The notes under the pieces are model-generated. The model worked only from the letters and a program-made list of their open reading frames with translations. It searched no databases and had not been told where the DNA came from. Shown here piece by piece: positions 3,001 to 58,442 of a stretch of 64,000 nt of DNA. Positions within the stretch are counted from its first letter, which is position 1. The number at the start of each line of letters is the position of its first letter. Source of the DNA: Iphione sp. A-MEVVRFRX5 (lineage: Eukaryota); contig OZ320316.1 of the NCBI GenBank assembly GCA_976226885.1, positions 77,004,001-77,068,000 on the forward strand. The letters run 5' to 3'. Position numbers and translations under genes: made by a program.

Positions 3001-6000
3001 GTGGAACCACAATTTTCTCGCGAAGATTGGCTTTCATGTCTGTCTTCTCCTTTTTCTCTTTTATAGTCTTAGTCAGTCGGCGGACACCTTCAGCGGCAGC
3101 CATCCCGGCCAAGACTGGAGCCCCGACAACTGCCAGGAGTCCCAATTTGGCAGCATCTTTTGCATTGATGCGTCGGCCTGAGGTTGGGTCCTTGTAATCA
3201 GCAGTATTTGCATCGATTAGACCTCGTTGCTTGGCCTCATCAATGGAAACCCGTTTTTTCATTACTGGGTCATACACTGTTGGTGCATCAGGGTCGATCT
3301 TTCCTTCTTTAATGGCCTGAGGCAATGGAATCTTGACACCTCGCTGCCAATCCATCACATACTCTGAGTCTGCACTGACCGCTGATTCAACCAAGCCAGA
3401 ATTGACTGCATCCCTCAAAGAGAGAAGTTTCTTGTGTGCTTGTGTGTCGATAAAATCACCTGTCTGTCCATCTACAATTCCCTGCTGGATGGCTTGGTGC
3501 ATGGTCAACCTCTGGCCAGAGTTTGGACTGACAATGACTGTTGTTTCTGGATTGATCACTCTCTGGTCAATGGCTTCTTGCAGCGTCAGTTGTTGTTTGG
3601 TGTGGGGATGGAGAACCCGGGCTGTATCTAGATCTAACATGCCACTAAGGATGGCATCTTCAAAGTTAACAGGTGACATTCGGGCTTCATTTCTAATAAA
3701 CTGCGGATCTACAGTGATATCCAGTTCCTTCAATCTATTTTCATTTACAAGTCCACTGTAGCTACTGACAAGGTTTTTCACCAAAGCATCCTGTAGGGAG
3801 ACACTTCGTCCTGTCTTGATGTCGACAATAGCTGCAGCCTTGGGATCGAGACAGCCACGGTTGATAGCCTCGTGAATTGTCATATGCTTTCCTGAGTTTG
3901 GTTCGATGAACCGACCAGTCCGGATGTCATATAGACCCAGTTTTACAGCACTATCAAATGACAGTCCTTTTGTTTCTTCCTGATCGGCTGGGGTGGTATC
4001 CATCGCTTCTTCTACAATGATGGTCTTTACTTCTGGCTCCACCAACTTGGTTGTCTGGATAGTCAAGGTTACAGTGTCTTCTTTGCTGTCGTCCTGTACA
4101 GTGCGTGCGGTTTCTACCACTTTGCTGTCACCTTCTATTGTCCTGATTTCTTCCTTCAGTTTTATTTCATGAGGATCGTGTGGGCGTGTCAAGCCTCTGA
4201 AAGGCATGGTCTCTGCCTTACGACTCAGGAGGTCAGCTGTCAGCTGGTCAATGAATCCTTCACGTACTGCTTCATGAAGTGGGATTTTCTCTCCAGTTCG
4301 GCCATCACGGACACAACCATTGGACCAGTCTGTTACAACACGTGCCTGCTGTGGGACAAACTCTTCAATCAACGGTTCTGAGCTCAAAGACGACCGTTCG
4401 GGCCCAAAGCCACGCTGCTTGTCACTGCTACTTGGATTCACAAGGCCCAACGCCATAGCCTCATCTATGGGGATTGTTTTGTTGTCCTTCGGGTTGTAGA
4501 AGGTCGTCTTGTCTTTGCTCAGCAGTCCCAGTTGTGTTGCTTGTGTTACTGATATAACTAGACCAGAGATCGGGTTCAAAACAGATACAATCTCTCCTGG
4601 CATTCCTTCCTTTTGGGTAGCAACCACATCACTGCGGAAGTGTTCCTGGGCTGTTGCTGCGACCAGCTCACCGACAATCAGACCCCGGTTTAGAGCTTCT
4701 GAGATGGGGATGGTTTCCCGTGTTTGTGCATTGATGTAGACACCTTGCTCCTCGTTAACGATGCCACGTCCATGGGCCTCCTGCAAGGTTATAATCTCTC
4801 CCGTTGTAGCATCTTTCACACCTGTGATTTGGAATTTCTTCGTGACTTCTGTCAACTCCTCATGAGCCATCTCGTCCAAGGCATCCAAATCATCGTCAAT
4901 GTGAATGCTGGGAACTCGTTCTTCATCTTCATCAACTTCTGTTTCTTCTAAGCCTAGCTCGACTTTGACAAGCCCTTTGTCGATGGCATCACTGATGGAC
5001 ATTACCTCTCCTGTTGCTTTGTTGTAATACTCGCCCTTACTTTTATCAATGACTCCTAGTTGTATCGCTTCGCTTGATGGAATTTCCATTTTGGTTACTG
5101 GGTGAATCACTGACTTTATGGTGTAGGTAGTGCTTCGAGAAGCAAGAATCCTGCTTTCAGCCATACTGTCAACAGGCTTTTGTGAACTGGATACAGTTGC
5201 CATAATCAGACCTTTTGAAATGGCATCCGTTACCATCATTTTATCACCGGTGACAGTGTTGACATACTGACCCTCACTCTGGTTCAGTATACCCCTTTTA
5301 ATGGCCTCAGTGACGGAGATCTGTTGTTTAGTGTTAGGGTCCATAACACTATGGATTTTGCAGGTTTGTGTCTCCTGTATGTACCGTGGACCCTTTGCCA
5401 TTGGTGAGGTGGTTATAGTACTGGTGGTAGCTATGACCAGTCCACGTTTGATGGCCTCTGAGATAGGAATTTGCTGCCGACGGCCATGAGCGTCACGGCC
5501 ATTATACCGCCCGTTGGCTTGATCAATTACCCCCTTCTTGAGAGCCTCAGCCACATCAATCATTTCACCCGTGGTGGGATCAATGGCGCCAGTGATGGTG
5601 AAGCTCTGGGTTTCCTTGATACCCATCAAACCGGCGGAAATGCCACTGTCATCAGGTTCTGCTTGAATGTATCCTGCTTCAATCGCCTCATTGATTGTCA
5701 ACACATCTGCTGAGGTCGGGTGTGTATAGGACCCACGTGCCTGGTCAAGAAGATGACGTCTGCTCGCACGATCAGGGTCGAGCCATTCGCCAGTGCGTGG
5801 ATCTAGCACCGATTTTATTATCATTCTTTTAACTTCAGCAATGTGTGGCACTTCCTTGGACTTATCCTTGTAGATGATGATGTGTGTCTTCAAGAGATCA
5901 TCCATAGTTTGGGGGACTTTTGTCCGTGGGTCAGTGAAGCGTCCCGTTGCATCAAGTAGCATTTTTTCTAGGGCTTCTTTCAATGGAAACTCTTTCTTGC

Positions 6001-8587
6001 TAATGGGATGTATGAAGTGGGCTATCTCTACATCAAGCAATTCACGATCAACGGCTTGCTCCAATGGCATTTCTTGGCCATTGGTAGGGTCGACGAAAAC
6101 ACCCGTCGCTGTAGCAAGCAGTTTCATAGCAATAGCTGTTCTCAGTGGAATGGGGAAGGTCACATCACCAGAGAATTCACTTTGTGCTGTTGTGCGAAGT
6201 TGGGACAATTTTGCTTCTTGTGTCGAGATGGCTTCAATGCCTTCCTCCGTACGGCGAGTATGGAAGTCCCGCCGCTCTGACCAGTGTACGTCTTCCTTTC
6301 CACCTTCAATATCACGAACATACTGATCAGACTCTTGCATTGTGACACGATCCTCAGGAACGATGGCTTCCAAGTCGGTCTGGCCTACGGGTACCATCGT
6401 GCCTCCCCTCATGTCACTTGGTATGGAACTCATAGTTGACAGGGTTTCTGAGTCCCATTCAGAAGCTGAGGAGAGGAGTAAGCCTCGTTGGACAGCCTCG
6501 CTCAGTAGCATGGTGTGGCCTGTTGCTGGGTCGCGGAAAGTACCCTGCTCCTCATTGACAATGCCCTGCCGCACCGCCTCAGCCACTGAGATGGCACGCG
6601 GTGGCTTGTCTTGAGCTTCTGACGGTTTAATCTGCGTCATGATCGTCTTGGTGGCCATAACTGCACTTGTAAGCCTCATGAGACGTTGTGCATCTCCAGG
6701 CTGCAGCAGTCCACAATCAACTGCTTCTTCTAGGGTCATTGAGCGGCCCGTTGTTGGATGTTTGACCTGGCCAGAGGACGGATCTAACAGGCCCCGTTTC
6801 AGAGCTTCCATTACACTGAGGTGACTACCAACAATATCTGTGAGACCTGAGTCACTCGAGAGCTGCTCTGCCAGCTCCGGGTCCACAAAGCCTCGTCGAA
6901 CAGCTTCCTCTAGTGACATCCTTCGTCCAGTTGTGTGATCAACGTAGGTTGCTGAGCCTGGATCGAAATAGCCTCGACTAATTGCCTCAGCCAAGTTGAG
7001 CGATTCATCAGTCACTGCATCACGGATTCCACGCTGAGCAAAGGTCACATCCTGGCTAAAGATCTGTGCCAGACCTTCATTGATAGCACCATGAAGGCTC
7101 AATCGCCGGCCACTCTTTGGGTCAACAAACTCGCCAGATGGGCTCACCAGTCCATAGGTGATTGCCTCTTGAAGGGAAAGCAGATCATTAGACCGTGGAT
7201 CAAGGATACACTTGAAGTCAAGATCAAGGATACCTTTCTCCAGAGCCTGCTGAAGTGTAAGTTTCCGGCCAGTATTCTGGTCTTTGATGACACCACCAGC
7301 ATCCATAATACCCTCTGTCAATGCTGTGTGTAGCGACATTGGCTGCTGGATGAGACCTCGTTGTTGGGCCTCATTCAGACCCATCGGACGTGTGGTGCGC
7401 AGGTCCACAAATACTCCAGTGTAGGGATTGATAATACCTTGATCAATGGCTTCTTGAACAGTGAGTTTTTCGCCTGTCACTGGGTGCAGCACCTCACGTA
7501 TACGTGGGTCGATGATTCCCCGATCTACAGCTTCCTGAAGGGTCACCTTCTCCCGCGATACAGGCTCGTAGAAGTGGCCACTACCAGGTATGTAGAGTCC
7601 TTTCTTCAGAGCGTCGGCCAGTGATAATGACACTGGAGCTGTGTCCATGTTGGGAACCCCGTAATATGCTTCTGACTGCGATGTGGATGAAGTGCGAATG
7701 CTGACATAGGAGAGAGTTTGCAGTGCCTCCTGAGAGATCACATGTCTTGCAGCAGCCTCCTCCAGGGTCATTACTCTTCCAGAACGGGGATCAGTTACCT
7801 GGCCTGAGAGGGGGTCATACCAGCCACGCTGCATGGTCTCCAGGATAGTGAGCTCTCGGCCAGTGGATGGATCTATCAGGCCACACTTGTGATGCAAGTG
7901 ACGGACCAGGTCCTTGTCTACATAGTTGAGCTTTGCTGCTTCAGATAGCGACATGGTGCGGCCCGTGCGTGGGTCTGAGAAGAGACCGGTTGTCACATCG
8001 AGCAGGCCGCTCTCGATGGCCTGTTCAAGGGACATCTTCCGGCCAGTCTTCGGGTTGAGTACGGCTGACACAAATACCACCTGGCCACGAGGTACTGTGG
8101 ACGTGGAGGAAACAGTTATCACAGACTGTACGGAATGGGGCAGAGTGACAGTCTCATCACGTGCGTCCTTTCCTTTACTGACCACTGAAATGCTAGTGAT
8201 GTTTGGCTGAACCTTGGGTGGTGCCATGGCTGAAGGTCCCTTCTTGGAGGGTACACTTGACACAGTGATGGTTTTGAAAGTCTCTATTGGTACGGCAGGC
8301 GTCTTCAGCCTAGCCTCCTGCTCTAGACTGTGCTGAGAGCTGCTCTTAGAGATCTGTACAATGCGGGCCCCACTTTGTACCTCACTGCTTGGAGTTACAG
8401 GGGCTGAGCTGCTAGTCGTCTTGGCTAGTATTACGCGACTCTGGAAGCTTGAAGACGGACTGAGAACTGGCCCATCTGTTGGGGACTTCAGCTGGATTCC
8501 AGCCCAGTCAATCTGGTCATCATCATCCAACATCCGCAATTCCGAACGGAATGTACGGATGCGAGGTATCACATCTTCCACTGCATA
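1..8587 (-). CDS. shot/MACF1/DST: Giant spectraplakin exon encoding plectin (plakin) repeats, truncated by the window edge (at least 2862 codons)
   Basis: Acceptor ttgttttcag|TAT GCA. The same frame reads plectin-repeat text near the start (VLNPKTGRKMSLEQAIESGLLD) and at the window edge (LSREEAIDRGIIDANTG). The ORF track reports no stop-terminated ORF in this frame, consistent with an open frame to position 1. Confidence 0.92.
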
Positions 8588-8866
8588 CTGAAAACAAGGA
8601 ATTCAGGTTGAAAATGACATACCTTTCTTAAATAGTTTAAGAAAGAGAGACCTTAAATAATGCTCATCCCGTCAAAATTTCTTCCAATAGTGTTACCAGG
8701 CAATATTTTCACGAAAATCAGTAGGTCCTACTACTGGTGGAAGTTGTAGTGTTGGACGTATAATTGGACCTTTTACAAGTGATATCTGACTTGTTTGCAT
8801 CAGAAGGAACTCTAGTAGGTTGACATACCAATCTAGGAGTCGAAGAAACAGTGAAATGACAATTAC

Positions 8867-28781: not shown

Positions 28782-29367
28782 TGTAGGCTAAAGCCTAGGT
28801 TTAGTTACACTGCTAGTAGCAGGGGTCATTGAGTGCAGAACTTGGGGTCAATGAGTGCAACTTCTGATGCCACTGTCATGTACCATCTGAGGTCAATGAG
28901 TGCATTCTGGTGACCTCATGGAAATTTCCACTACTGTGTTAATGTGATGTGATTGGTTGATGGACTAGTGGAAATTTCCACTACTAAGGTGTGATTCTCT
29001 GATTGGCTGGTGGGAGATCACCCCACCTGCCCATATTAGGTAATAGAGTTATGATTGGTCACTGAGAGATCACCCCATATTTCCTAATATGGGGGGAGCT
29101 CTCTGATTGGTGGAAAACATTCTATAACTTGTTACTTTGTATCTTTTATAAGGAAAAGTGTACTGATTGGCTAGAAACATTCTTTCTGACATGATACATT
29201 GTTACAATTAATGGAACTACATTCTGATTGGTTAATCGGTGAGGCTAGGCCTCTGATTGGTGGAATGACACTCAGAAGGGATATATAAACGGTGGTTTTG
29301 GAAGGAAATAAACAGTTTGGAACCAGCAATTGTGGTGTTCACAGCAACTTTATTGGTCCACTTTACA
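28782..29367 (+). repeat. 5' LTR (586 bp)
   Basis: No difference from 39708-40293 by eye; TATATAAA at 29282, AATAAA at 29307, seven GATTGG (inverted CCAAT) boxes. Confidence 0.97.
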
Positions 29368-29368
29368 C

Positions 29369-29386
29369 TGGTGGCAGCGGTGGGAT
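29369..29386 (+). promoter_or_regulatory. Primer-binding site complementary to the tRNA-Leu 3' end
   Basis: TGGTGGCAGCGGTGGGAT is the reverse complement of ATCCCACCGCTGCCA+CCA, the 3' end of animal tRNA-Leu (AAG type) as I recall it; starts 1 nt after the LTR. Confidence 0.9.
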
Positions 29387-29392
29387 AGGATA

Positions 29393-30253
29393 ATGGCCCG
29401 CAAGATAGTGGACGTTGACGAGGAAGTACAGCTGAGAATGCCACGGGGAGTGGAGGAAGAAGAAGAGGCACCGGAGCCATTTGTGTTAGCTCCTGAAGAG
29501 CCCCTGAAGCTGAACAGTCTCAAGCCTGAGCGTTTTGACGGTCGCACTGATGATTGGGAGAGTTGGCTGTTGCAGTTCGAGGAGTGGGCAGGTGCCTGCA
29601 ATTGGTCGGAAGGGCAGAAGTCGGCGGCACTCACGCTACTACTCTCAGGAAGTGCTCGCGCATTTTACGGCGACTTGTCCAGGGAAGAGCGAGAGACGTA
29701 TGGGGCCAAAGTGAACGCTCTACAGGCCAGATTCGGCCGAGGCCGGAACCGCATCATGGCGATGCAGGACCTTTCCAGTGCCAAGCGCCACAAGGGAGAG
29801 GACGTACGGGCCTACGCCGACAAAGTTAAAAGGTTGGTGAGGAACGCGTATGAAGATGCGGGACGCGAAACCAGGGAGCTGGCTACCGTCTCAACGTTCC
29901 AACGGGGCCTGACAGAAGATCTGCATCTCAAGTGCCTCGAGGCCAAGTGCGAGACACTAGAACAGGCGATACAGGTTGTAGAAGTGCAAGAGAAGTTTCA
30001 GACAAGACGGGTACATGCAGTACAAGCAACCAAGGATCCCCAGCTGACGTGGAAGCAGGAGATGCAAGACCTGCTGTCGAAACAGATGGAGCAACTCCGG
30101 ACGGAATTGAAGAATGACGGGGAAGCTAGAAGAAATCGCCGCAAGCTCCTCACCTGCTTCGAGTGCAAAGAGATAGGACATATCCGCAGGGAGTGCCCAC
30201 TCCTCACCAAGGCGAAGCAGTCGGAAAACGACCAGCGGTCACTCCCACAGTAA
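29393..30253 (+). CDS. gag: Gag (286 aa) with a single CCHC zinc knuckle
   Basis: KPERFDG...WESWLLQFE retrotransposon-gag N-terminus; CFECKEIGHIRREC. The ATG at 29393 follows the primer site; the ORF-track start at 29330 lies inside the LTR. Confidence 0.95.
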   Translation: MARKIVDVDEEVQLRMPRGVEEEEEAPEPFVLAPEEPLKLNSLKPERFDGRTDDWESWLLQFEEWAGACNWSEGQKSAALTLLLSGSARAFYGDLSREERETYGAKVNALQARFGRGRNRIMAMQDLSSAKRHKGEDVRAYADKVKRLVRNAYEDAGRETRELATVSTFQRGLTEDLHLKCLEAKCETLEQAIQVVEVQEKFQTRRVHAVQATKDPQLTWKQEMQDLLSKQMEQLRTELKNDGEARRNRRKLLTCFECKEIGHIRRECPLLTKAKQSENDQRSLPQ

Positions 30254-33200
30254 GGCAGGGGGAGATGACCGCGTTGCCGGAATCGGGGACACTGGTAGAG
30301 GCAGGCCAGGGATTGTATCTGAAGGTAAGCGCATTTGAACAGAGCTTCCTTTTGCTGGTAGATACAGGGGCCGAAGTTTCTATCATTAACCCCCGGTTTG
30401 TCCCTGACCTGCCTCATACCATGTTACCATCCCGGATAGTGGGAGCAGGGGGTCATACTATTCCTACTTTTGGGAAGAGAATGGTCCGAGTTCGGATAGG
30501 AGCTAAGGATTTTGATCACGAATTTGTGTTAGCAGAGATTGATGGTGATGGGATCTTAGGCAATGATTTCCTAGGGGAACATAAAGCAATCCTAGATGTA
30601 GCAGAGAGGAAAGTTATGATGTATAATCAGACCTTCGGTTGTAACAGGGTCATCCGTCAGGGAGACAGGTGTTTGAAGGTTGTGTCTGATGTAGAAATTC
30701 CCGCGGGAAAGGGGTGCCTCATCCCAATTGTTAACCCAGGCGGTACCACGCTGCTGGTGGAAGGAGTCCATGAAGATCAAGTGGAAAAGGGGATTGTGAG
30801 CGTTCGATGTGTGGTTGACACAAGTCTCCCGGTGTGGAATCCAGGGTCAGACACCGTGCTGGTCAAGGGAGGGACACCAATAGCCCTGGGGACTGCAGTG
30901 CCGTCAGAGGGCCTCCCAACTGAGACACAAGCAAGAGTCAACCGTGTGAGGGCACTCTCCCCAGTCGAACAGGAGTTAGTCGAAGGACTGACGGAGGGAG
31001 CGAAGTCGCAGCTGAGCGAGGGGGAACAAGCTAAACTTAAGGCACTGTTGAAGAACTTCATACATGTGTTTGCTAGAGATAAGTTCGACCTGGGGCGGAC
31101 GGGAGTCACGCAACATCGAATCTATACGGACACTGACCATCCGATCAAACAAGCCCCCCGTCGGTTACCCCTAGCAAAGAGGCAGGAAGAGCGAAAGTTA
31201 GTGCAGGAGATGCAAGAACTCGGGGTCATCCGGGAAAGCAGGAGCCCCTGGTCAAGTCCCATCGTTATGGTAAAGAAGAAGGATGGCTCAACGCGCTTCT
31301 GTGTTGACTACCGTAAACTCAACCAGAGAACCAAGATTGATGCCTACCCTTTGCCCCGCATCGACGACTCACTTGGGACGTTGGCTGGAGCCAAGTTCTT
31401 CTGCTCCCTGGACCTCGCCTCCGGGTACTGGCAGGTGAAGATGCACCCTGAAGATGCAGAGAAGACCGCCTTCTCGACGTCATTGGGCCTGTACGAGTTC
31501 ACGGTCATGCCCTTCGGCCTAGTGAACGCCCCCGCAACCTTTGAGAGATTGATGGACACCATCCTGCGGGGCCTCACGTGGGACCAGTGCCTGGTATATT
31601 TGGACGATATCCTCGTTTTCGGTCAAGATTTTGAGCAAACACTAGGCAGACTTGAGGCTGTCCTGTCCAGATTCGAATCGGCCGGGTTGAAGTTAAAGCC
31701 CTCGAAGTGCAAGTTGTTCCTAACAGAAATCGACTTCTTAGGGCATCGCATTTCACAAGATGGCATCGCCACAGACCCGGGGAAGATCAAGAGCATCGCC
31801 GACTGGCCGACGCCAACCTGTACGACGGGGATACGCGCTTTCTTGGGCATTTGCTCCTACTACCGAAGGTACGTCCCAGATTTCGCCACCATTGCGAGTC
31901 CACTTAATCAACTCACCGGGAACAGGTCGACTTTCCGCTGGACCGAAGAGCAACAGGAGGCTTTCAAACGGTTGAAGAAGGCACTGATGTCCAGCCCCAT
32001 TCTCGGTTTCCCCATGCCAGAAGGAGAGTACACCCTGGATACAGACGCCAGTGACGTAGGACTAGGAGCGGTTCTGTCTCAACAACAAGAGGACCGAGAG
32101 GTGGTGATCGGGTATTTCAGCCGCAGCCTGAGCCCGGCTGAACGCAAGTACTGCGTCATGCGACGAGAGCTGTTAGCGGTGGTGACCAGTCTCAAACACT
32201 TCCACTTCTACCTATATGGACGAGCAGTGACAATTAGGACAGACAACGGTGCAGTCAGCTGGGTAAATCGCATTCGGGACCCAGAGGGGCAACTTGCACG
32301 CTGGATCGAACGCATCCAACAGTACCAGACGAAGTTTGTACATCGAGCCGGAAGATCTAACGGGAATGCAGATGCCCTGTCCCGACAGGAATGCAAGCAA
32401 TGCCACCAGGAACACCTTCTGGAGGAGGACCAGTCCAGCCGGGTCGCGGTCATCACCCGAAGCCAGACTCAAGACACCGATCACCGGGAGCTGCGACTAC
32501 AACAACTAGCGGACCCTGACATTGGCCCAATTCTCAAACTTCGAGAGGCCCAGACAACTCAACCGCCTTGGGAAGAAGTATCTCCTTCCTCTGCGGCAGC
32601 AAAAAGCCTGTGGCGACAATGGAATAGGCTCGAAGTGATTGATGGGATACTCCACCGACGCTGGATCGGAATTGGGGCCGATTACTCCCGAGTTCAAGTC
32701 GTGCTGCCGACCTCGAAGCGGACAGAAGTCATCCGGGCCGTCCACGGCGGGAAAGCGGGAAGCCACTTGGGATGTGATCGGACGACTTTCCTGGTGGGAC
32801 TAGCGTACTATTGGCCGGATATGAAGGGAGACGTCCGGGAAGTCTGTCAGTCATGCCACTGTGCCCTGCTAAACAAGACAGCCCTTGCCCCTCAGGCAGG
32901 GCTAACCTCTTACATAGTAGGAGAACCTATGGAGAGATGGTCTATGGACGTAGCTGGCCCATTCCCCATTACCCAACGGGGGAATAAGTACGTCTTGATG
33001 ATCGGTGACCACTTCTCCAAATGGTTAGAGGCTTTCCCGATGCCGGATCAGAAAGCCGAACGGGTGGCAAGGCTGATTCTGGAAGAAGTAATCGTTAGAT
33101 ATGGCTGTTTCCGCGAACTGCATAGTGACCAGGGGACGAATTTCTGCAGCGAAGTAATTCACTCCCTCTGCGAGCTGATGGAGATCAAGAAAACACGCAC

Positions 33201-33867
33201 CACGCCGATGCACCCTCAGGGAGACGGTTTCGTAGAAAGAAGTTTCCGCACTCTTGGACGCATGCTGAAGGCCTACCTCTACGAACACGAGGCCGAATGG
33301 GACGAGGCACTCCCGTATTTGATGATGGCCTACCGAGCGTCCCCACAAGCCAGCACAGGATTCTCTCCAAACTTCTTGATGTTTGGCCGGGAGATCACGT
33401 TGCCACTACACGTGATGGATGGGGTCCCCAGCCGAGACCCGGACTCGGATCACCCGCTGGAGGTGGCAGTGAACAGAACTCATCATCGAATGCAGCAGGC
33501 CTTCAAGAAAGCCAGGGAGAACCTAAAGTGCGCGGCAAAGACACAGGCGCATCAATACGACAAGAGAGTACGACAAGAAGAAATACATCCAGGGTCGGTA
33601 GTATGGCTCCACCATGCACAACCGCCACGGGGGAAGGCTCCAAAGCTCCACTTTCCTTGGCGAGGTCCCTGCCTTGTGACGCAAGTGCTGGACTCGGGAC
33701 GAGCAGTTGTGCAGCAGTCGTGCTCATCTCCAGGGAAGGTAGTCCACAGGAATCGCCTACTGCCATTTAAAGACAAACGACTGCCCCCATGGATTACGCG
33801 CTGGAAGAAGATCAACGAGAAGAGCACGCCGCGACGGGATGAGGTACCCCCAACCCAAGAGGTATAA
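30163..33867 (+). CDS. pol: Pol polyprotein (protease, reverse transcriptase, RNase H, integrase), in the -1 frame relative to gag
   Basis: LLVDTGA protease; LDLASGYWQ, MPFGLVNAP and YLDD in RT; TDASDVGLG in RNase H; integrase D-D-E (MDVAGP, HSDQG, VER) and a GPY/F-like WRGPC motif; uninterrupted frame. Confidence 0.98.
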   Translation: MQRDRTYPQGVPTPHQGEAVGKRPAVTPTVRQGEMTALPESGTLVEAGQGLYLKVSAFEQSFLLLVDTGAEVSIINPRFVPDLPHTMLPSRIVGAGGHTIPTFGKRMVRVRIGAKDFDHEFVLAEIDGDGILGNDFLGEHKAILDVAERKVMMYNQTFGCNRVIRQGDRCLKVVSDVEIPAGKGCLIPIVNPGGTTLLVEGVHEDQVEKGIVSVRCVVDTSLPVWNPGSDTVLVKGGTPIALGTAVPSEGLPTETQARVNRVRALSPVEQELVEGLTEGAKSQLSEGEQAKLKALLKNFIHVFARDKFDLGRTGVTQHRIYTDTDHPIKQAPRRLPLAKRQEERKLVQEMQELGVIRESRSPWSSPIVMVKKKDGSTRFCVDYRKLNQRTKIDAYPLPRIDDSLGTLAGAKFFCSLDLASGYWQVKMHPEDAEKTAFSTSLGLYEFTVMPFGLVNAPATFERLMDTILRGLTWDQCLVYLDDILVFGQDFEQTLGRLEAVLSRFESAGLKLKPSKCKLFLTEIDFLGHRISQDGIATDPGKIKSIADWPTPTCTTGIRAFLGICSYYRRYVPDFATIASPLNQLTGNRSTFRWTEEQQEAFKRLKKALMSSPILGFPMPEGEYTLDTDASDVGLGAVLSQQQEDREVVIGYFSRSLSPAERKYCVMRRELLAVVTSLKHFHFYLYGRAVTIRTDNGAVSWVNRIRDPEGQLARWIERIQQYQTKFVHRAGRSNGNADALSRQECKQCHQEHLLEEDQSSRVAVITRSQTQDTDHRELRLQQLADPDIGPILKLREAQTTQPPWEEVSPSSAAAKSLWRQWNRLEVIDGILHRRWIGIGADYSRVQVVLPTSKRTEVIRAVHGGKAGSHLGCDRTTFLVGLAYYWPDMKGDVREVCQSCHCALLNKTALAPQAGLTSYIVGEPMERWSMDVAGPFPITQRGNKYVLMIGDHFSKWLEAFPMPDQKAERVARLILEEVIVRYGCFRELHSDQGTNFCSEVIHSLCELMEIKKTRTTPMHPQGDGFVERSFRTLGRMLKAYLYEHEAEWDEALPYLMMAYRASPQASTGFSPNFLMFGREITLPLHVMDGVPSRDPDSDHPLEVAVNRTHHRMQQAFKKARENLKCAAKTQAHQYDKRVRQEEIHPGSVVWLHHAQPPRGKAPKLHFPWRGPCLVTQVLDSGRAVVQQSCSSPGKVVHRNRLLPFKDKRLPPWITRWKKINEKSTPRRDEVPPTQEV
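30223..30278 (+). promoter_or_regulatory. Predicted -1 ribosomal frameshift signal (G_GAA_AAC plus hairpin or pseudoknot)
   Basis: Heptamer is in the gag frame at 30223-30229; 5-nt spacer; stem GCGGTCACTCCC (30235-30246) pairs with GGGAG-a-TGACCGC (30260-30272); loop GGCA can pair with TGCC (30275-30278). Confidence 0.75.
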
Positions 33868-34140
33868 CTTTCCGGTTTTGGTGATGGATTGGGGACAGGT
33901 TCCCGCTGGAGTATCTTAGCATCCCGAAAAGTCGTACAGCAGGGTAAGGGACAGGTGCCCTGGAGCGTCTCAGCGTCTCGAAAGTCCCACTAGTTATTCC
34001 TTAGTTCCTCTATTGGCCTTTGCAGTTGGCGAGGTCCCCACATTTCCGTTTGGCCAGGGCAAGAGAGATCCCCCTGGAGCGTCTAGCGTCTCGAAAACCC
34101 TCTGGTTAGACTTTAGTTCCTTGTGTTCTAAGAGTTCTTT

Positions 34141-34794
34141 GTCAGGGAAGGAAGATGGTTCCCCTGGAGCGTCTCAGCGTCTCAAAAGTCTTCGGTCAGG
34201 GAAGGAAGATGGTTCCCCTGGAGCGTCTCAGCGTCTCAAAAGTCTTCGGGTCAGGGAAGGAAGATGGTTCCCCTGGAGCGTCTCAGCGTCTCAAAAGTCT
34301 TCGGTCAGGGAAGGAAGATGGTTCCCCTGGAGCGTCTCAGCGTCTCAAAAGTCTTCGGGTCAGGGAAGGAAGATGGTTCCCCTGGAGCGTCTCAGCGTCT
34401 CAAAAGTCTTCGGGTCAGGGAAGGAAGATGGTTCCCCTGGAGCGTCTCAGCGTCTCAAAAGTCTTCGGTCAGGGAAGGAAGATGGTTCCCCTGGAGCGTC
34501 TCAGCGTCTCAAAAGTCTTCGGGTCAGGGAAGGAAGATGGTTCCCCTGGAGCGTCTCAGCGTCTCAAAAGTCTTCGGTCAGGGAAGGAAGATGGTTCCCC
34601 TGGAGCGTCTCAGCGTCTCAAAAGTCTTCGGGTCAGGGAAGGAAGATGGTTCCCCTGGAGCGTCTCAGCGTCTCAAAAGTCTTCGGGTCAGGGAAGGAAG
34701 ATGGTTCCCCTGGAGCGTCTCAGCGTCTCAAAAGTCTTCGGTCAGGGAAGGAAGATGGTTCCCCTGGAGCGTTTCAGCGTCTCAAAAGTCTTCG
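34141..34794 (+). repeat. Tandem array of 12 x 54/55-bp units inside the retrotransposon
   Basis: Unit gtcagggaaggaagatggttcccctggagcgtctcagcgtctcaaaagtcttcg(g); unit lengths 54,55,54,55,55,54,55,54,55,55,54,54; flanked by a duplicated ~150-bp block and diverged units (about 33890-35050). Confidence 0.97.
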
Positions 34795-35381
34795 AAGTTA
34801 TTCCTTGGTTCCTCTATTGGCCTCTGCAGTTGGCGAGGTCCCCACATTTCCGTTTGGCCAGGGCAAGAGAGATCCCCCCTGGAGCGTCTAGCGTCTCGAA
34901 AACTCTCTGGTTAGATTTTAGTTTCTTGCGTTCTAAGAGTTCTTTGTCAGGGAAGGAAGATGGTTCCCCTGGAGCGTCTCAGCGTCTCAAAAGTCTTCGG
35001 TCAGGGTAAGGGACAGGTGCCCTAGAGCGTCTCAGCGTCTCAAAGTCCCACTAATTATTGGTTCCCCCAGACCTACCCCGAATCTTTCCATTAGCGATAT
35101 GGAAGGGAGCCCCATTCTAGGTCCGACACCAAAAAGGGGGGGGGGCTCCACCGCATGATATCTCAGGGGCCCAGTAGCATGAGTAGAATCAGTCGGGGTG
35201 GGGACCGTCTGCCGCGCTACCAACCAACGGACGGGTCGCCAACCTCGACTATCTACGCCTCGACGGAGAGAGACATCGGCACTGGGCTGCCGGTGAGCGA
35301 CCAAGTCAAGTCTGCAGATCCGGGCACTATGACCGCCAGCGGCTGCGGCTGGGCAGGACCACGATCCCAGGCGACACGACC

Positions 35382-35532
35382 GTCGTCCGCTGCATAGGAG
35401 GAAGATGTCCCAGATGATACGACCATCATCTGCTGCACCTACCTTGTCGGGTTGCCGACTGCTGTCGTCCGCTGCATAGGAGGAAGATGTCCCAGATGAT
35501 ACGACCATCATCTGCTGCACCTACCTTGTCGG
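35382..35532 (+). repeat. 69-bp direct repeat, two copies (35382-35450, 35464-35532)
   Basis: Identical copies with period 82. Confidence 0.9.
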
Positions 35533-35931
35533 AGAAAGTGGAGACAACACTACCACGCGTTAATCCCCAGAGTGGTGACTGTTACTTACCTGTGATGAAT
35601 TTGGATTGAGGACGATGATCCTAGCGAGAAGACGGGGGGACCACGGTCCCTATCGCCCCTGCGGACTGTTCCAGGCATCCGGGTGATTGCAGAGACACTT
35701 ACCATCCTCAAACGGCACGACCACCACACTTCTCAAGCCCAAGACAACAACAGATACAGGTATGTGACAGTGGCATCAATATGGGTAAAGGACGGGGTTG
35801 CTACTATTTGGCACTCGGCAGTTAGTGTGAGTCTCTAGATGGGGAGACCCCTATGTGAAGAGTTACCGACATGTGAACGTGAAAATAGAAAAAGCCAGTA
35901 AGACACAAGTGCAGGACAAGTGGATTTTTTT

Positions 35932-35937
35932 TTTATT
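35932..35937 (-). terminator. Poly(A) signal of the antisense gene
   Basis: AATAAA on the minus strand about 20 nt after the TAA stop (35957-35959), followed by a U/GU-rich tract (cttgtcctgcacttgtgtcttactggctttttctattttc). Confidence 0.7.
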
Positions 35938-35956
35938 TAGATGAAGAGTATGACGC

Positions 35957-36635
35957 TTATTCCTCGTCGGATGATATGCAAATAGGCCAGAAGCCGGTGT
36001 CGCCGGGGACTAGCCCCGTGCACCACCGCTCCATGGCGGGAATGTCCAATCCGGGTGGCAGAATGGGGGAGCGGCTGGGGGTGTCCTGGGCGGATGTGGA
36101 TGAAACACTGGGCGAGGCCGGAGTAGAGGGGATGCTCTCTTCGTCTGTTGAGCGCTCGGATGTGCCGGGGGAAGCGACGGAGGCGGTGAGAGTGCCGGGA
36201 ACGAGGGGGTCCTCCCCCTGGCTCCCCCCGACCCCGCTGTCATCGGAGGTGAGACCGGGGTCAAGTATACTGGTGGCCATGCTTCCGTACTCCCACTCGT
36301 CGTCGTTGCTGGGATGATCCTCGGCCTCCCCGGCGGCGGCCAAGAGGGCGTCCACGACACGGGGGGATGGTGGCGCATCATCCCGCGGCCAGATCACAGT
36401 GGCCGGGGCAGCGTCCCGCGGCCATACGACGGTGGCCGGCTGTTGCGGGTCGCTAGCAAGCAGCCCCGCAATGATATCGTCGCTCCGGCGCACGGTCAGG
36501 TCGATGGTATAGTTGGGACCGTAGAGCGCCAGATGCCCCGGGACATCTAGGTAGAAAGGGGCCTCCGGGGCTGCCCGCACCCCTGCAACCCGCACCCGCG
36601 GGCCGGGGGTGTAAATATCCACGTATGGGACGCCC
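35957..36635 (-). CDS. Antisense accessory gene, last coding exon (acidic, Pro/Ser-rich)
   Basis: Acceptor ctcatttcccttcctag|G GGC GTC CCA TAC GTG is in frame with the 221-aa ORF, which ends ...WPICISSDEE*. Confidence 0.75.
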
Positions 36636-36760
36636 CTAGGAAGGGAAATGAGACGAGGATGTCAGGGGGGAACAGCCATAATTAGGACAGGTGGGTTAGC
36701 ACAATGATAGAGACAAAGATGCAAACGGGATAAAGAAGCTGTAGAGAGGGGAATACTTAC

Positions 36761-36823
36761 GGGAATCCCTCATCGGGGACCGGGATGAGTCCACCTGGCT
36801 GGGGTACCCAGGGATCTCCATAC
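36761..36823 (-). CDS. Antisense accessory gene, internal exon (63 nt)
   Basis: Acceptor cctatctcccttcctag, donor gtaagt; YGDPWVPQPGGLIPVPDEGF; phases match both neighbours. Confidence 0.72.
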
Positions 36824-36947
36824 CTAGGAAGGGAGATAGGGATGGCATTTAGCTGCTGGTGATGAGGGAGGTGTTCAAATGAGGACTCAGAAATTCATGG
36901 AACTAGTCAGGAAATCACTAGGAAATGGACATAGATGGGACGCTTAC

Positions 36948-37007
36948 CGGGGGTCAGTGGGCGCGTAACCACCAAAAATAGGATCGGCATAAGCAGGCAG
37001 GGGGAAC
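36948..37007 (-). CDS. Antisense accessory gene, internal exon (60 nt)
   Basis: Acceptor cttattttccttctcag, donor gtaagc; FPLPAYADPIFGGYAPTDP; no stop; phases match. Confidence 0.7.
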
Positions 37008-37137
37008 CTGAGAAGGAAAATAAGCACTGACCTATAGTGAGATAAGTTACCTGGTAATGAAGACAAGGGAAATTACAGGGAGGCCTTTTTTTTATCAGAC
37101 ATTGACTATGGAGAATGGTAACCCCTCCCCACACACG

Positions 37138-37148
<11 letters not shown>

Positions 37149-37199
<51 letters not shown>
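37149..37199 (+). repeat. A51 homopolymer inside the retrotransposon
   Basis: Read directly; preceded by (CA)n. The length may be a sequencing artefact. Confidence 0.9.
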
Positions 37200-37201
<2 letters not shown>

Positions 37202-37336
37202 TGGGGTGAGTGGATATGTATCTCAGAAACCCATTTAGCAACCCTACCAGACCCTCTAGCCTGGATGTACATTTGTCATTGAGATGAGCTGACCACACAC
37301 ATATTTAGAAAATTTGTCAAAATTGGCCCTACTTAC

Positions 37337-37435
37337 ATGTCAATGGATGGGCGAAACTTTCAAAATTCGGGTGACAGGCTCTCCAAACTTTGGGGAGGCA
37401 GGCCGGGCCGGCGGCGGGGGAGCGATGGAGATCGA
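37337..37435 (-). other. Antisense accessory gene, upstream exon (mostly 5' UTR; ends in AT, completing ATG on splicing)
   Basis: Acceptor ccactccag, donor gtaagt; exon end ...GACAT joined to the next exon's G TTC CCC gives ATG. A further gtgagt donor lies at 37490. Confidence 0.5.
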
Positions 37436-38009
37436 CTGGAGTGGCGGCGAGCCGGATAACAAGGAGCGAGCGACGACAACAGCTACTCACAGCGACTTTC
37501 GGGCTCAGAATGATGAAAAATTCGCGGTGACGACATCAAACTTCGTGATATGACGTTGCTGGCACGAGGTTGAGATGGAGACAGCCCGAAAAGATCGAAA
37601 GGAACAGTTTGAATGGGTTTTCGTTCCACGATGACGCACGGTGGAACGGAGCCCGAAATGAGCCCGAAATTTTACGACACTCCATATTTGGGAACGTCGT
37701 TTGCGACATCTGTACCCACCTGCAGCAGCGTTTTCGGGGAAGAACGAGCCGGCGGGAACAGCACCCAAAGAGCGAGGAAAAGGTTGTTCGACCCGAAATT
37801 TGGTGGGGAGCGACCCGAAGTTGGAAGGTCGAGGCCACGGGAGCAACGGGTCGGTGAGGACGGACGATTACGAGAAACATTTGGTGGGGAGCGACCCGAA
37901 GTTGGAAGGCCGAGACCACGGGAGCAGCGAGTCGGCGAGGACGGACGACTACGAGAAAGATTTCAACCGGCCCGAAACTGGTGAGAAACGACCCGAAGTT
38001 GGAGTGAAC
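37340..38009. promoter_or_regulatory. CpG-rich, putatively bidirectional internal promoter region
   Basis: Lies between the divergent antisense gene and ORF3; 11 CCCGAA/TTCGGG hexamers in about 630 bp; 81-bp tandem duplication (about 37800-37960). Confidence 0.45.
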
Positions 38010-39494
38010 ATGTCTCGTCGGCTACTGGACCCGGATGAACCCATCCCAGAAGGCAAGATATTGTGCCCACCGTGTTTAGTGAGGGGACTTAGACGGGTGT
38101 GTTCTGGGAAGAAGGGTCTCAGGCGTCATCTGTTGGAGCAACACAGGGGGAAACGCAGAAAACCTATGGCATGCCTGTTCTGCCGGTCCTCCCACTGTGA
38201 CAACCATTCGTGGCTGACCCACACTCGTCGACACCATCAGTGGGCAGTCGAGTTGCACCTCACGGATGAACCATACCGTTCACTGTTTCATCTAGTGTAC
38301 AGGGAGAGAGTAGAGGCAGATGCTCCAGACGATCAGGTAGCGCGGGCAATCATAGCGGCACGAGAATATTGGAAGAGAAGACAGAAGGTTACCAAGGAGA
38401 TGATGATCCGCCTACTGAGAGAAGCTGAAGAGTCCCTGAGAGATGACCAGGCGAGGGCACCACCGCCTGGGAGAGAGCCCGAGACATTGCCGGCACCTAC
38501 CGGTCCAGTTGCCAGGTCTCAGTCTACTGGCTCACCGACATCCCCTGTACCAGCTGTGGGTCCCACTGGGGCTCGTAAGTTCAAGTCAACCAAGGCAAGG
38601 GGACCAGCGGCTGTGAAAAGCGAGACTGCGACAACAGCCCCCGGGCAGCCAACACCGTCTACATCAACTGCAGGCTCCTCTGCCACCCAGGGATTTAGGC
38701 CCCTCGAACCGAAGGGATCGCCAGCCACGAAGCACGGGGCCGTGGCAACGCCTGCTCCACTGACCCAGACCCCCATAAAGGTTGATAGTGCCAGGACGAC
38801 CTCCCCCGGTCGCAAGAGGACCAGGGTGGCCTTACAGACCGCCACGGGCGAACGGGCTCTTCCCGACAACACGACAGCACGACAACAGGTCCCAGCCGAG
38901 GGACAGCCAGCTACGTTTGTCCCCGAGGAAGACTCGATCATCAGCATGCTGAGGGGGGAGATGACCGGCGACGATCCGAGAAGAGAGAGGGCGAGGGCCC
39001 TACTGGACGGAAGAATTCCCCCATATCGGGCGGCGATGCGTGAGCGGCCCACATCCTCCACTATACGCCTTCCCCAGCGAATCATCTGGCCTCCAAGGGA
39101 CTGGGACCAGGCCGATGGGGGCTCACGATTCCTGTGTAGCCTCAGCGTGGCATGGACCCTACACATGGCCGAGGACAGAGTGATGCCAACAGACAGGCTG
39201 GGACCCCTCCGGGACAGACCATTCCTCTTGCTGCCAGGCATGTCTTACCCCACGGATGACCTGTGGGGCGATCCCGCATCACTGGGGACAGAGCACGATG
39301 ACATTATCCAGCAGGTACAAGGGTTGCTTAGGACAGGAGACCGGCCACCAGCGTCGACGGTTACATTGTGGGATGCCCAGGCCGACGAAGCGAGACGACA
39401 CCTCACCAGGGTGAACCCCGCCGTGCTGGACCTTTGCCGAACAGGCCCCCCTCTCTCCCGCCCCCTCACCTTGAGAGATTACTGGGCACTGTAG
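38010..39494 (+). CDS. Accessory ORF3 (494 aa from the first ATG): two C2H2-type zinc fingers, low-complexity linker, C-terminal domain of unknown type
   Basis: CPPC-X17-H-X4-H and canonical CLFC-X12-H-X3-H (38064-38237); basic clusters RGKRRKP and PGRKRTR; no signal peptide or TM segment; frame open back to a TTG at 37701. Confidence 0.85.
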   Translation: MSRRLLDPDEPIPEGKILCPPCLVRGLRRVCSGKKGLRRHLLEQHRGKRRKPMACLFCRSSHCDNHSWLTHTRRHHQWAVELHLTDEPYRSLFHLVYRERVEADAPDDQVARAIIAAREYWKRRQKVTKEMMIRLLREAEESLRDDQARAPPPGREPETLPAPTGPVARSQSTGSPTSPVPAVGPTGARKFKSTKARGPAAVKSETATTAPGQPTPSTSTAGSSATQGFRPLEPKGSPATKHGAVATPAPLTQTPIKVDSARTTSPGRKRTRVALQTATGERALPDNTTARQQVPAEGQPATFVPEEDSIISMLRGEMTGDDPRRERARALLDGRIPPYRAAMRERPTSSTIRLPQRIIWPPRDWDQADGGSRFLCSLSVAWTLHMAEDRVMPTDRLGPLRDRPFLLLPGMSYPTDDLWGDPASLGTEHDDIIQQVQGLLRTGDRPPASTVTLWDAQADEARRHLTRVNPAVLDLCRTGPPLSRPLTLRDYWAL

Positions 39495-39694
39495 ACGCCT
39501 ATTATACAAGTTTAGCTAGTTTTAAGTTAGTTAGGTGGACTGTTTGAATCGTTAACAAGGTTATTGAAAACGGAAGGAGATTATTTGGTACTAGGACTTT
39601 TTCTCTTGGAAAACAATGCTGGAGCTCCGCGAGGGAAAGACACCATAAGGGGGTGAGTACAGATCTTTTTTTTTGTGAGCCCATGCCTGGGATT

Positions 39695-39707
39695 AAGCAG
39701 GGGAGAG
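39695..39707 (+). promoter_or_regulatory. Polypurine tract
   Basis: AAGCAGGGGAGAG immediately before the TG of the 3' LTR. Confidence 0.92.
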
Positions 39708-40293
39708 TGTAGGCTAAAGCCTAGGTTTAGTTACACTGCTAGTAGCAGGGGTCATTGAGTGCAGAACTTGGGGTCAATGAGTGCAACTTCTGATGCCACT
39801 GTCATGTACCATCTGAGGTCAATGAGTGCATTCTGGTGACCTCATGGAAATTTCCACTACTGTGTTAATGTGATGTGATTGGTTGATGGACTAGTGGAAA
39901 TTTCCACTACTAAGGTGTGATTCTCTGATTGGCTGGTGGGAGATCACCCCACCTGCCCATATTAGGTAATAGAGTTATGATTGGTCACTGAGAGATCACC
40001 CCATATTTCCTAATATGGGGGGAGCTCTCTGATTGGTGGAAAACATTCTATAACTTGTTACTTTGTATCTTTTATAAGGAAAAGTGTACTGATTGGCTAG
40101 AAACATTCTTTCTGACATGATACATTGTTACAATTAATGGAACTACATTCTGATTGGTTAATCGGTGAGGCTAGGCCTCTGATTGGTGGAATGACACTCA
40201 GAAGGGATATATAAACGGTGGTTTTGGAAGGAAATAAACAGTTTGGAACCAGCAATTGTGGTGTTCACAGCAACTTTATTGGTCCACTTTACA
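39708..40293 (+). repeat. 3' LTR (586 bp)
   Basis: No difference from the 5' LTR by eye; followed by ATAT. Confidence 0.97.
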
Positions 40294-57680: not shown

Positions 57681-58442
57681 AGTGGGGGCTCTTAGGGCCT
57701 GAAATGGCCAAACTCGTTACGGAGTGGATAAAAGCGCCATTTTTTGTATATAGATCTAATTTTTTAATTTTTGAAGTTAAGTCATAATTTCTTGAGTACT
57801 GGATCTTTACTATTCTCTGGTAGGAATATTTCATAATTTAAATGAAAAACACTATATCAATCTGTTACACTTGATTCATCAGTAAAGAAGAACTGAGACC
57901 CTCAGCAGCAGAATTTGACCAAATTTGGAAATAACATGTCTGATTAGAATTGAAGAAAGGGGGACAAAGAATTATCATAAACTTCTGGAAAAACCATCAA
58001 AATGAAGCTTAAGACTTCTATTTTCATATAAGCTGTGATATAAACTAGAATAGTTCTTTACAGTTGTTTCCATGGAAACAATATAAGGTCAAATCACTTT
58101 TTGTATGAAATTTTGAGGTCAAAGTTCAAATTTTAATGACCTTGACCTTGACCTAAACAAATAAAATTAGTGTATTTAGAACAATTATCTATAAATGTTT
58201 GTATATGAGAATTTATATCATAATATGATAATTAGTCTTTTACCAGGACCAATATTTATATGAAAATTTGATGTAATGAAAATTTTCAAAATTTTCAGAT
58301 ATAAATGGTTGCCATGGCAACCATGTTCAGCTTTCAAGATGTGGACCCTTCTAAAATGAAAATTTAAAGTCTTTTAGATCTATATACAAAAAATGGCGCT
58401 TTTATCCACTCCGTAACGAGTTTGACCCTAAGAGCCCCCACT
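57681..58442. mobile_element. Non-autonomous DNA transposon with ~60-70-bp terminal inverted repeats, apparently nested in a truncated TACAGTAGAACC-type MITE starting near 57590
   Basis: Left agtgggggctcttaggg...ttttttgtatatagatcta mirrors right tagatctatatacaaaaaa...ccctaagagcccccact; target duplication ambiguous (ATAGT 5 bp or TAG 3 bp). Confidence 0.75.

Follow-up and report, generated by a model that had tools for sequence, protein, structure and literature searches.

ORF3, the third gene of an 11.5-kb Gypsy LTR retrotransposon found at positions 28782-40293 of the window (the whole stretch of 64,000 nucleotides of Iphione sp. A-MEVVRFRX5 analysed here), is intact and under purifying selection. 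Its homologues are linked to Gypsy pol, it is exchanged between elements as a cassette, and it is accompanied by motif arrays that are specific to each element family. It represents a new accessory-protein family, and the polymorphism of its cassette is directly observed. We infer from these sequences that its product binds the motifs. There would be about an even chance that this protein is an element-encoded transactivator or anti-silencer, working like Tas of foamy viruses or VANC of plants. LTR retrotransposons are commonly thought to borrow host transcription factors. If the proposed function is true, a self-encoded factor with family-specific operators would amount to the control logic of complex retroviruses in a transposon.

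Element architecture and the ORF3 protein

The order of the pol domains, the LTRs, the target duplication, the primer-binding site (PBS) and the polypurine tract identify the element as a Ty3/Gypsy LTR retrotransposon (Table 1). Both 586-bp LTRs are identical and the element is flanked by a 4-bp target duplication, ATAT. Its PBS is presumably of the tRNA-Leu type.

Table 1. Positions, in the window, of the features of the element and of ORF3
Feature	Position	Strand	Remarks
5' LTR	28782..29367	+	586 bp, TG...CA, 0 differences from the 3' LTR; no CCCGAA
PBS	29369..29386	+	site of like type also in families E, F and G and in L072
gag	29393..30253	+	286 aa, CCHC knuckle, intact
pol	30265..33867	+	1200 aa, protease-RT-RNase H-integrase (Gypsy order), intact
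Tandem array	34141..34794	+	54/55-bp units; CCCGAA on the minus strand in 6 units
Antisense gene, main exon (predicted, spliced)	35957..36635	-	226 codons; acidic, Pro/Ser/Gly-rich, no Lys, no Pfam match
Antisense gene, predicted 63-nt exon	36761..36823	-	AG/GT bounded, same phase as its neighbours
Antisense gene, predicted 60-nt exon	36948..37007	-	further donor site at ~37336
Divergent internal promoter region (putative)	37366..37997	.	11 CCCGAA: 8 plus, 3 minus
ORF3 cassette, type A	37735..39645	+	upstream motif region, ORF3 and 3' UTR; homology edges ~37720-37740 and ~39640-39650
ORF3	38010..39494	+	open frame, 494 aa
Zinc finger 1	38064..38144	+	extended C2H2, residues 19-45; C19-x2-C22-x17-H40-x4-H45
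Zinc finger 2	38172..38237	+	residues 55-76; C55-x2-C58-x12-H71-x4-H76, canonical spacing
C-terminal domain, unnamed fold	38988..39431	+	residues ~327-474; G-x2-P, WPP-x2-W, LLPG; common to mussel-type relatives
Polypurine tract	39695..39707	+	
3' LTR	39708..40293	+	

Among 13 insertions of the same family (family 1, or F1), target duplications are 4 bp long, mostly ATAT, ATAG or GTAT, and both sides match in 9. In the copy L050, the target duplication is mismatched and the gag-pol start of another copy is found head-on past the 3' LTR, which suggests a nested or rearranged insertion. The LTR of the window element (28782-29367) contains two GGAAATTTCC palindromes, seven CCAATCA and three GGTCA-N-TGAGTG repeats, which we take to resemble NF-kB, CCAAT-box and nuclear-receptor sites, respectively; its commonest 7-mer is a CCAAT-box word. 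In the tandem array, units with and without the full CCCGAA alternate, and the copy number differs between family-1 copies. Just before the 3' LTR, positions 39653-39700 (GTGAGT...TTAAGCAG) look like a 48-nt intron ending within the polypurine tract, present in all six family-1 copies compared; its splicing would remove the polypurine tract from the RNA.

ORF3 was initially placed in the env position. It does lie between pol and the 3' LTR, but 4.1 kb past the end of pol (33867), behind the tandem array and an antisense multi-exon gene. Its frame of 494 codons is indeed open, as first reported, and remains so back to 37662; in an alignment with the three other cassette types (see below), their start Met falls on the Met at 38010. 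A 610-aa product of the longer frame was rejected, the extension upstream of 38010 not being conserved.

The pair of C2H2 fingers announced in the preliminary description, one canonical (finger 2) and one extended (finger 1), is also found, with a conserved ligand spacing that ranges from x15 to x17 in finger 1 across homologues. The conserved last ligand of finger 2 is H76, not H75, and the fingers are joined by GKRRKP, without a TGEKP linker. The helix of finger 1 varies between cassette types, Arg39 being invariant, while positions 65 and 67 of the finger-2 helix are constant inside a family and differ across families. All eight Zn ligands are invariant in the 17 intact homologues from four families (L032, where Arg replaces His71, stands outside this set), hence ORF3 is not a chance reading frame; a lack of conservation of these Cys and His residues had been set beforehand as a possible refutation. 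Pro, Thr and Ala make up 47% of residues 150-300 (71/151), as expected from the first account of this linker, but its basic NLS-like clusters are not conserved and the linkers of type C and of family E are acidic. Basic residues are conserved at the N-terminal end, ahead of the finger-1 helix and in the stretch that joins the two fingers. The C-terminal motifs LLDGRIPPY, IWPPRDW, FLLLPG and TLWD are present. The selection check proposed at the outset gives, pooled within types, a pN/pS of 0.13 for the N-domain (fingers), 0.35 for the linker and 0.14 for the C-domain (9 pairs out of 11, two in which a sequence recurred being excluded), values that place the finger domain and the C-domain under purifying selection.

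Pfam has no match for ORF3, for either of its domains or for the antisense exon, and its zf-C2H2 family matches none of eight members from this genome and six of ten distant relatives. Among sequences of solved structures, the ORF3 profile meets fingers only at E 1.7-2.2, which is chance level. A word-indexed homologue search gave no match with ORF3, nor with a mixed family alignment; as members of this alignment are themselves in that database, the second result carries no information. In the same way, the ESM Atlas gave no match of at least 0.9 for ORF3 and no usable match for the C-domain of a relative, and no ORF3 relative was found in viral contigs.

The location between pol and the 3' LTR would suit a protein akin to Env or a gene recently captured from the host, and endogenous retroviruses are reported to exchange env between backbones by template switching (PMC10536682). 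Such an origin is extremely improbable. The homologues of ORF3 are Gypsy-linked, which led us to reject a captured host gene; Env was rejected since there is no hydrophobic segment (maximum 19-residue Kyte-Doolittle mean of 0.77) and no envelope-family match in Pfam. Unlike env, the gene exchanged here encodes a soluble zinc-finger protein, and moves with its upstream motifs, rather than a receptor-binding glycoprotein.

Homologues of ORF3 and its exchangeable cassette

A search of the 1.18-Gb assembly with ORF3 gave 155 matches, with 12 full-length copies 94-100% identical (8/12 free of stops) and many further ones at 34-59% identity. Three more families (E, F and G) were added by two further genome searches. 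Fifty-four stretches of 10 kb, hand-picked to span the diversity and with open frames favoured, were then compared. A Gypsy gag or pol is located upstream in the same orientation at 50 of these 54 homologous loci (19/20, 17/20 and 14/14), in all four families; the linkage to pol that the preliminary description asked about is therefore found, and the homologues are not host genes. No backbone was seen at L044, and L068-L070 are degraded and were left out of further analysis. Seven family-1 copies (L033, L036, L037, L038, L045, L047 and L050) are non-autonomous derivatives that share one deletion, from RT to integrase, with gag and protease retained, and that carry differing cassette types. ORF3 is intact in four of these seven. 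Family G has comparable derivatives (L080, L081 and L087).

Beyond this genome, 1.84 billion representative sequences were searched with a profile, which gave eight matches at E < 0.001. Seven of them carry the C-terminal G-x2-P / WPP-x2-W / L-LPG domain, and two of the seven also start with two C2H2 fingers; the remaining one (P0003) matches in the fingers alone and was excluded from the family. The named distant members are from Mytilus. A profile-profile comparison of the genome group with the distant group (probability 87%, E 4e-6, 132 C-domain columns) makes the kinship of ORF3 with this mussel-type group distant but credible. In the distant group, the extended and the canonical finger come in reverse order; the fingers match DNA-binding C2H2 arrays (CTCF, E 1e-5) and in one Mytilus protein the finger domain is fused to an integrase. 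Four metagenome loci were also obtained, and both of those with flanks are Gypsy-linked. L073 has a pol ~800 bp upstream, at 52% to the RT region of the window element, whereas in L072 there follow an LTR-sized stretch, a PBS and gag. No motif array was seen at the two distant loci with flanks. ORF3 is a real and old element-borne gene of an unnamed protein family, whose C-terminal domain also occurs within mussel proteins now annotated as hypothetical genes.

At the DNA level, family-1 copies can be aligned with the window starting in the 5' LTR or in pol, as far as ~37,720-37,740, and once more from ~39,640; they are mostly unalignable in between. Family-1 ORF3 genes belong to the types A (that of the window), B, C and D with a variant D', the others being 42-51% identical to type A overall. 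Between types, identity within the domains is 46-60% and synonymous sites are saturated (pS 0.71-0.85), whereas the pol ahead of the different types is 98.8-99.2% identical (dS 0.03-0.07). The DNA trees of RT and integrase (12 copies each) both contain two fully supported backbone lineages, each with A, B, C and D or D', and the closest relative of the window element by RT and integrase is a type-D copy. Because saturated types sit on 99% identical pol in both lineages, the types must long predate the backbone, onto which recombination has shuffled them. Recombinant LTR 'clans' provide a reported precedent for exchange (PMC6894440).

The two LTRs of a copy show 0-5 differences in six copies of types B-D that bear pol and 1-9 in the seven pol-deleted copies, and each of the four family-1 types has very young insertions, with differences at 0-1 of 586 sites. 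Such small numbers imply that all family-1 types are currently in use. The other families resemble family 1: in family E, five ORF3 types occur on backbones that are 85-97% alike; the two types of family G share ~50% identity, with a backbone at 97.7%; and family F is a milder case. This cassette exchange was overlooked in the preliminary description, as was the antisense gene to which the regulatory region is common.

Rapid positive selection behind the divergence between types was rejected, since synonymous sites are saturated and change within types is purifying. Selection for rare types is the preferred reason for their persistence; divergent types could be kept because rarity brings an advantage, such as escape from the silencing that the host directs at a master switch. 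Whatever the function of ORF3, the types could also be interchangeable leftovers of old subfamilies or horizontal imports, with a backbone that recombination homogenises as far as homology extends and without any advantage for rare types. This is a real possibility, although we place it somewhat below even. Recombination between co-packaged copies of LTR retrotransposons is reported as established (PMC6894440), loss of homology yields common edges automatically, and the purifying change within types gives no sign of positive selection. However, drift and hitch-hiking with backbone sweeps should eliminate types, and yet saturated types persist on both family-1 backbone lineages and recur in families E and G, and all four family-1 types have the very young insertions mentioned above.

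Motif arrays and the antisense gene

The non-coding region between ORF3 and the antisense gene contains 11 CCCGAA in 800 bp, two of them inside an 81-bp tandem duplication (37798-37963) and one at -18 from the ORF3 start codon. The best 6-mer reached at most 6 in 100 resamples, and 52,488 bp of flanking DNA hold 11 CCCGAA in total. A homologue of the antisense gene is found in all four families. In the window (35957-37340, minus strand), this predicted spliced gene displays small exons rich in Pro, Gly and aromatic residues, a short conserved core and an acidic tail; the predicted exons contain neither a finger nor a basic cluster. Families E, F and G have a TATA-like box oriented toward it. 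In the upstream regions of L051, L063 and L075, a ACCGGAAGT...AACATCCG block, which we take to be ETS-like, is conserved in families F and G and partly in E, while the dyad motif changes.

The upstream motif is CCCGAA in family 1, CTTGGG-N4-CCCAAG in E, TTTGSG-N4-CSCAAA in F and YTCGTG-N4-CACGAR in G, with half-sites that can be aligned across families (CCCGAA, CCCAAG, CSCAAA and CACGAR). In 22 upstream regions searched with these four patterns, which were defined after seeing the very sequences counted, a region holds 5-12 copies of the motif of its own family and 0-1 of the others, except for 2-4 E-type dyads in F. Inside a family, the motif is constant even where the upstream DNA of two types is unalignable. 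Upstream of the LTR TATA box (one copy per family), 14 strict dyads are found in E, 5 in F and 3 in G, those of F being of a symmetric form, one that the E pattern matches too. The LTR of the window element has no CCCGAA. Response-element-like motifs thus occur at both the internal region and the LTR in families E, F and G but not in that of the window, whose sites are mostly single half-sites rather than N4 dyads.

The dyads have variable 4-nt spacers, and the mismatches in 93 sites are 21 of G.U type, 14 of A.C type and 42 others. The variety of spacers and the kinds of mismatch make us favour double-stranded DNA sites and reject an RNA hairpin. Family F dyads show C.C and G.G mismatches in both orientations. 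An NFI site was also rejected, the spacer being N4 here and presumably N5 for NFI.

Among 128 ungapped N-domain columns, five are fixed within every family yet different between families, and two of these (65 and 67) belong to the finger-2 helix. Of all 285 columns in both domains, position 67, Ser in families 1 and G but Ala in E and F, is the one column of this kind that tracks the G/A of the motif; this suggestive match is a single phylogenetic contrast, since the separation of F1+G from E+F may have arisen once (RT tree 86/96). Types A-D have 2-4 different residues at each position of the finger-1 helix, whereas the 6-bp motif core is invariant, so that a simple two-finger reading of 6 bp fails; this helix may be a protein-contact surface. 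In families E-G, finger 1 has Pro or Gly in helix positions. The canonical finger recognition code fits either strand just partly and was left out of the evidence.

Possible functions of ORF3 and known systems

Because the motif arrays are family-specific, a regulator that binds CCCGAA clusters is the best-supported reading of ORF3. The regulator proposed in the preliminary description would thus hold for the internal region; its binding to the LTR is unsupported by the motif count there, and a role as targeting factor gained no support. The binder would be encoded by the element, since four different motifs occur in one host and a host factor is not expected to change its target along with the element family. 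Between the two internal gene products, the predicted antisense exons, devoid of finger and basic cluster, were counted toward ORF3. Also counted in its favour were the matches of distant fingers to DNA-binding C2H2 arrays and the four pol-deleted family-1 copies whose ORF3 is intact.

The two-finger protein would bind the family motifs upstream of its own gene and, in three of the four families, also in the LTR, and this binding would activate or un-silence transcription of the element itself. The protein could be made from the internal divergent promoter and act as a dimer on palindromic sites, finger 2 contributing to motif specificity. Activation would then proceed in a positive loop, at the internal promoter first and at the LTR next.

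Activation and repression are indistinguishable from sequence. A protein that binds the same motif arrays could repress the element, as a control of copy number or immunity in which the types are specificity groups; the sites less than 20 bp from the start codon (-18 in the window) and the retention of the gene by pol-deleted copies would be in line with this. We nevertheless judge repression to be distinctly unlikely, as a core motif identical for all types of a family would entail cross-reaction at the DNA level and the dyads upstream of the LTR TATA box, up to 14, resemble enhancers. It also seems unlikely, if rather less so, that host factors or another protein of the element bind the motifs while ORF3 acts on RNA or as a protein adaptor, for example to export the unspliced genomic RNA, the part that CERV plays for Cer1 (PMC10309623). 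That precedent, the predicted introns on both strands of the element, the atypical fingers (among them the Pro/Gly in the finger-1 helix of families E-G) and a motif that is constant in a family like the homogenised backbone genes, and not type-specific like ORF3, all speak for it. It is opposed by the occurrence of four different motifs in one host, by the family-diagnostic residues of the finger-2 helix and by an antisense protein without DNA-binding features.

ORF3 as an activating or anti-silencing protein has its closest likenesses in two systems. Tas (Bel1) is reported to be encoded by an accessory gene near the 3' end and to act as a dimer, in a positive loop, on response elements at the internal promoter and in the U3 of the LTR (PMC3798896). 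This layout is matched in families E, F and G. By contrast, the family of the window has no LTR sites, the element is an env-less Gypsy retrotransposon whose protein has C2H2 fingers and whose internal region is divergent and common to an antisense gene, and homology is not expected. VANC of Arabidopsis VANDAL elements is described as an element-encoded anti-silencing protein with conserved domains and a variable region; VANDAL motifs are short, family-specific, about two bases apart between families and piled up in non-coding DNA, often by tandem duplication (PMC5735166). In the same way, ORF3 families accumulate a family-specific motif in non-coding regions, partly in tandem repeats. However, VANDAL is a plant (Mutator-like) DNA transposon, the word 'zinc' is absent from the main text of the VANC paper, and the sites found here are palindromic in three families. 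Moreover, divergent types on one backbone have no mention for VANDAL in the part of that paper covered here. ORF3 can be likened to Tas and VANC in its putative working, as a member of neither family.

Other elements offer looser parallels. CERV, encoded by an LTR retrotransposon of an animal (Cer1 of C. elegans), is described as a nuclear accessory regulator whose metal site is rich in Cys (PMC10309623); it involves a possible C4 finger and RNA export, whereas ORF3 combines two C2H2 fingers with a DNA motif array next to its gene. Plant Ty3/Gypsy elements (Grande with gene23, RIRE2, Retand) are reported to carry extra sense or antisense ORFs of unknown function between pol and the 3' LTR, some with a nuclear product and their own promoter (PMC7264820). 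'Zinc finger' is absent from that review, and the element described here is from an animal and has its sense and antisense genes arranged back to back. In literature titles and the opening lines of abstracts (most subscription journals, Repbase reports and supplements being outside this scope), neither a Gypsy element with a C2H2 ORF3 nor cassette types of this kind were found to be described. Term look-ups in three papers on invertebrate LTR elements (PMC8220671, PMC13524379 and PMC8556966) found neither of them.

A wider scheme would combine an own sequence-specific factor, co-evolving palindromic operators in the LTR and the internal promoter, and ancient unalignable types under frequency-dependent selection, with the rest of the element swept uniform. 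Taken as a whole, it is tentative and on the improbable side; if true, it would be a polymorphism of mating-type or phage-immunity kind inside an animal retrotransposon. With four families, four motifs and at least four types in one family, this genome provides a natural panel. It lends itself to following, in an animal, the co-evolution of a DNA-binding protein encoded by a transposon with its sites, and to asking whether escape from silencing maintains accessory-gene polymorphism.

Elsewhere in the window, positions 2-8602 (minus strand) form one open exon of at least 2867 codons, presumably of a plakin-repeat host gene, which points to an invertebrate animal as the host. MITE-like elements are located at 23339-24012 and 57695-58438, with terminal inverted repeats of 51 and 65 bp, and the former contains a 41-bp tandem array.
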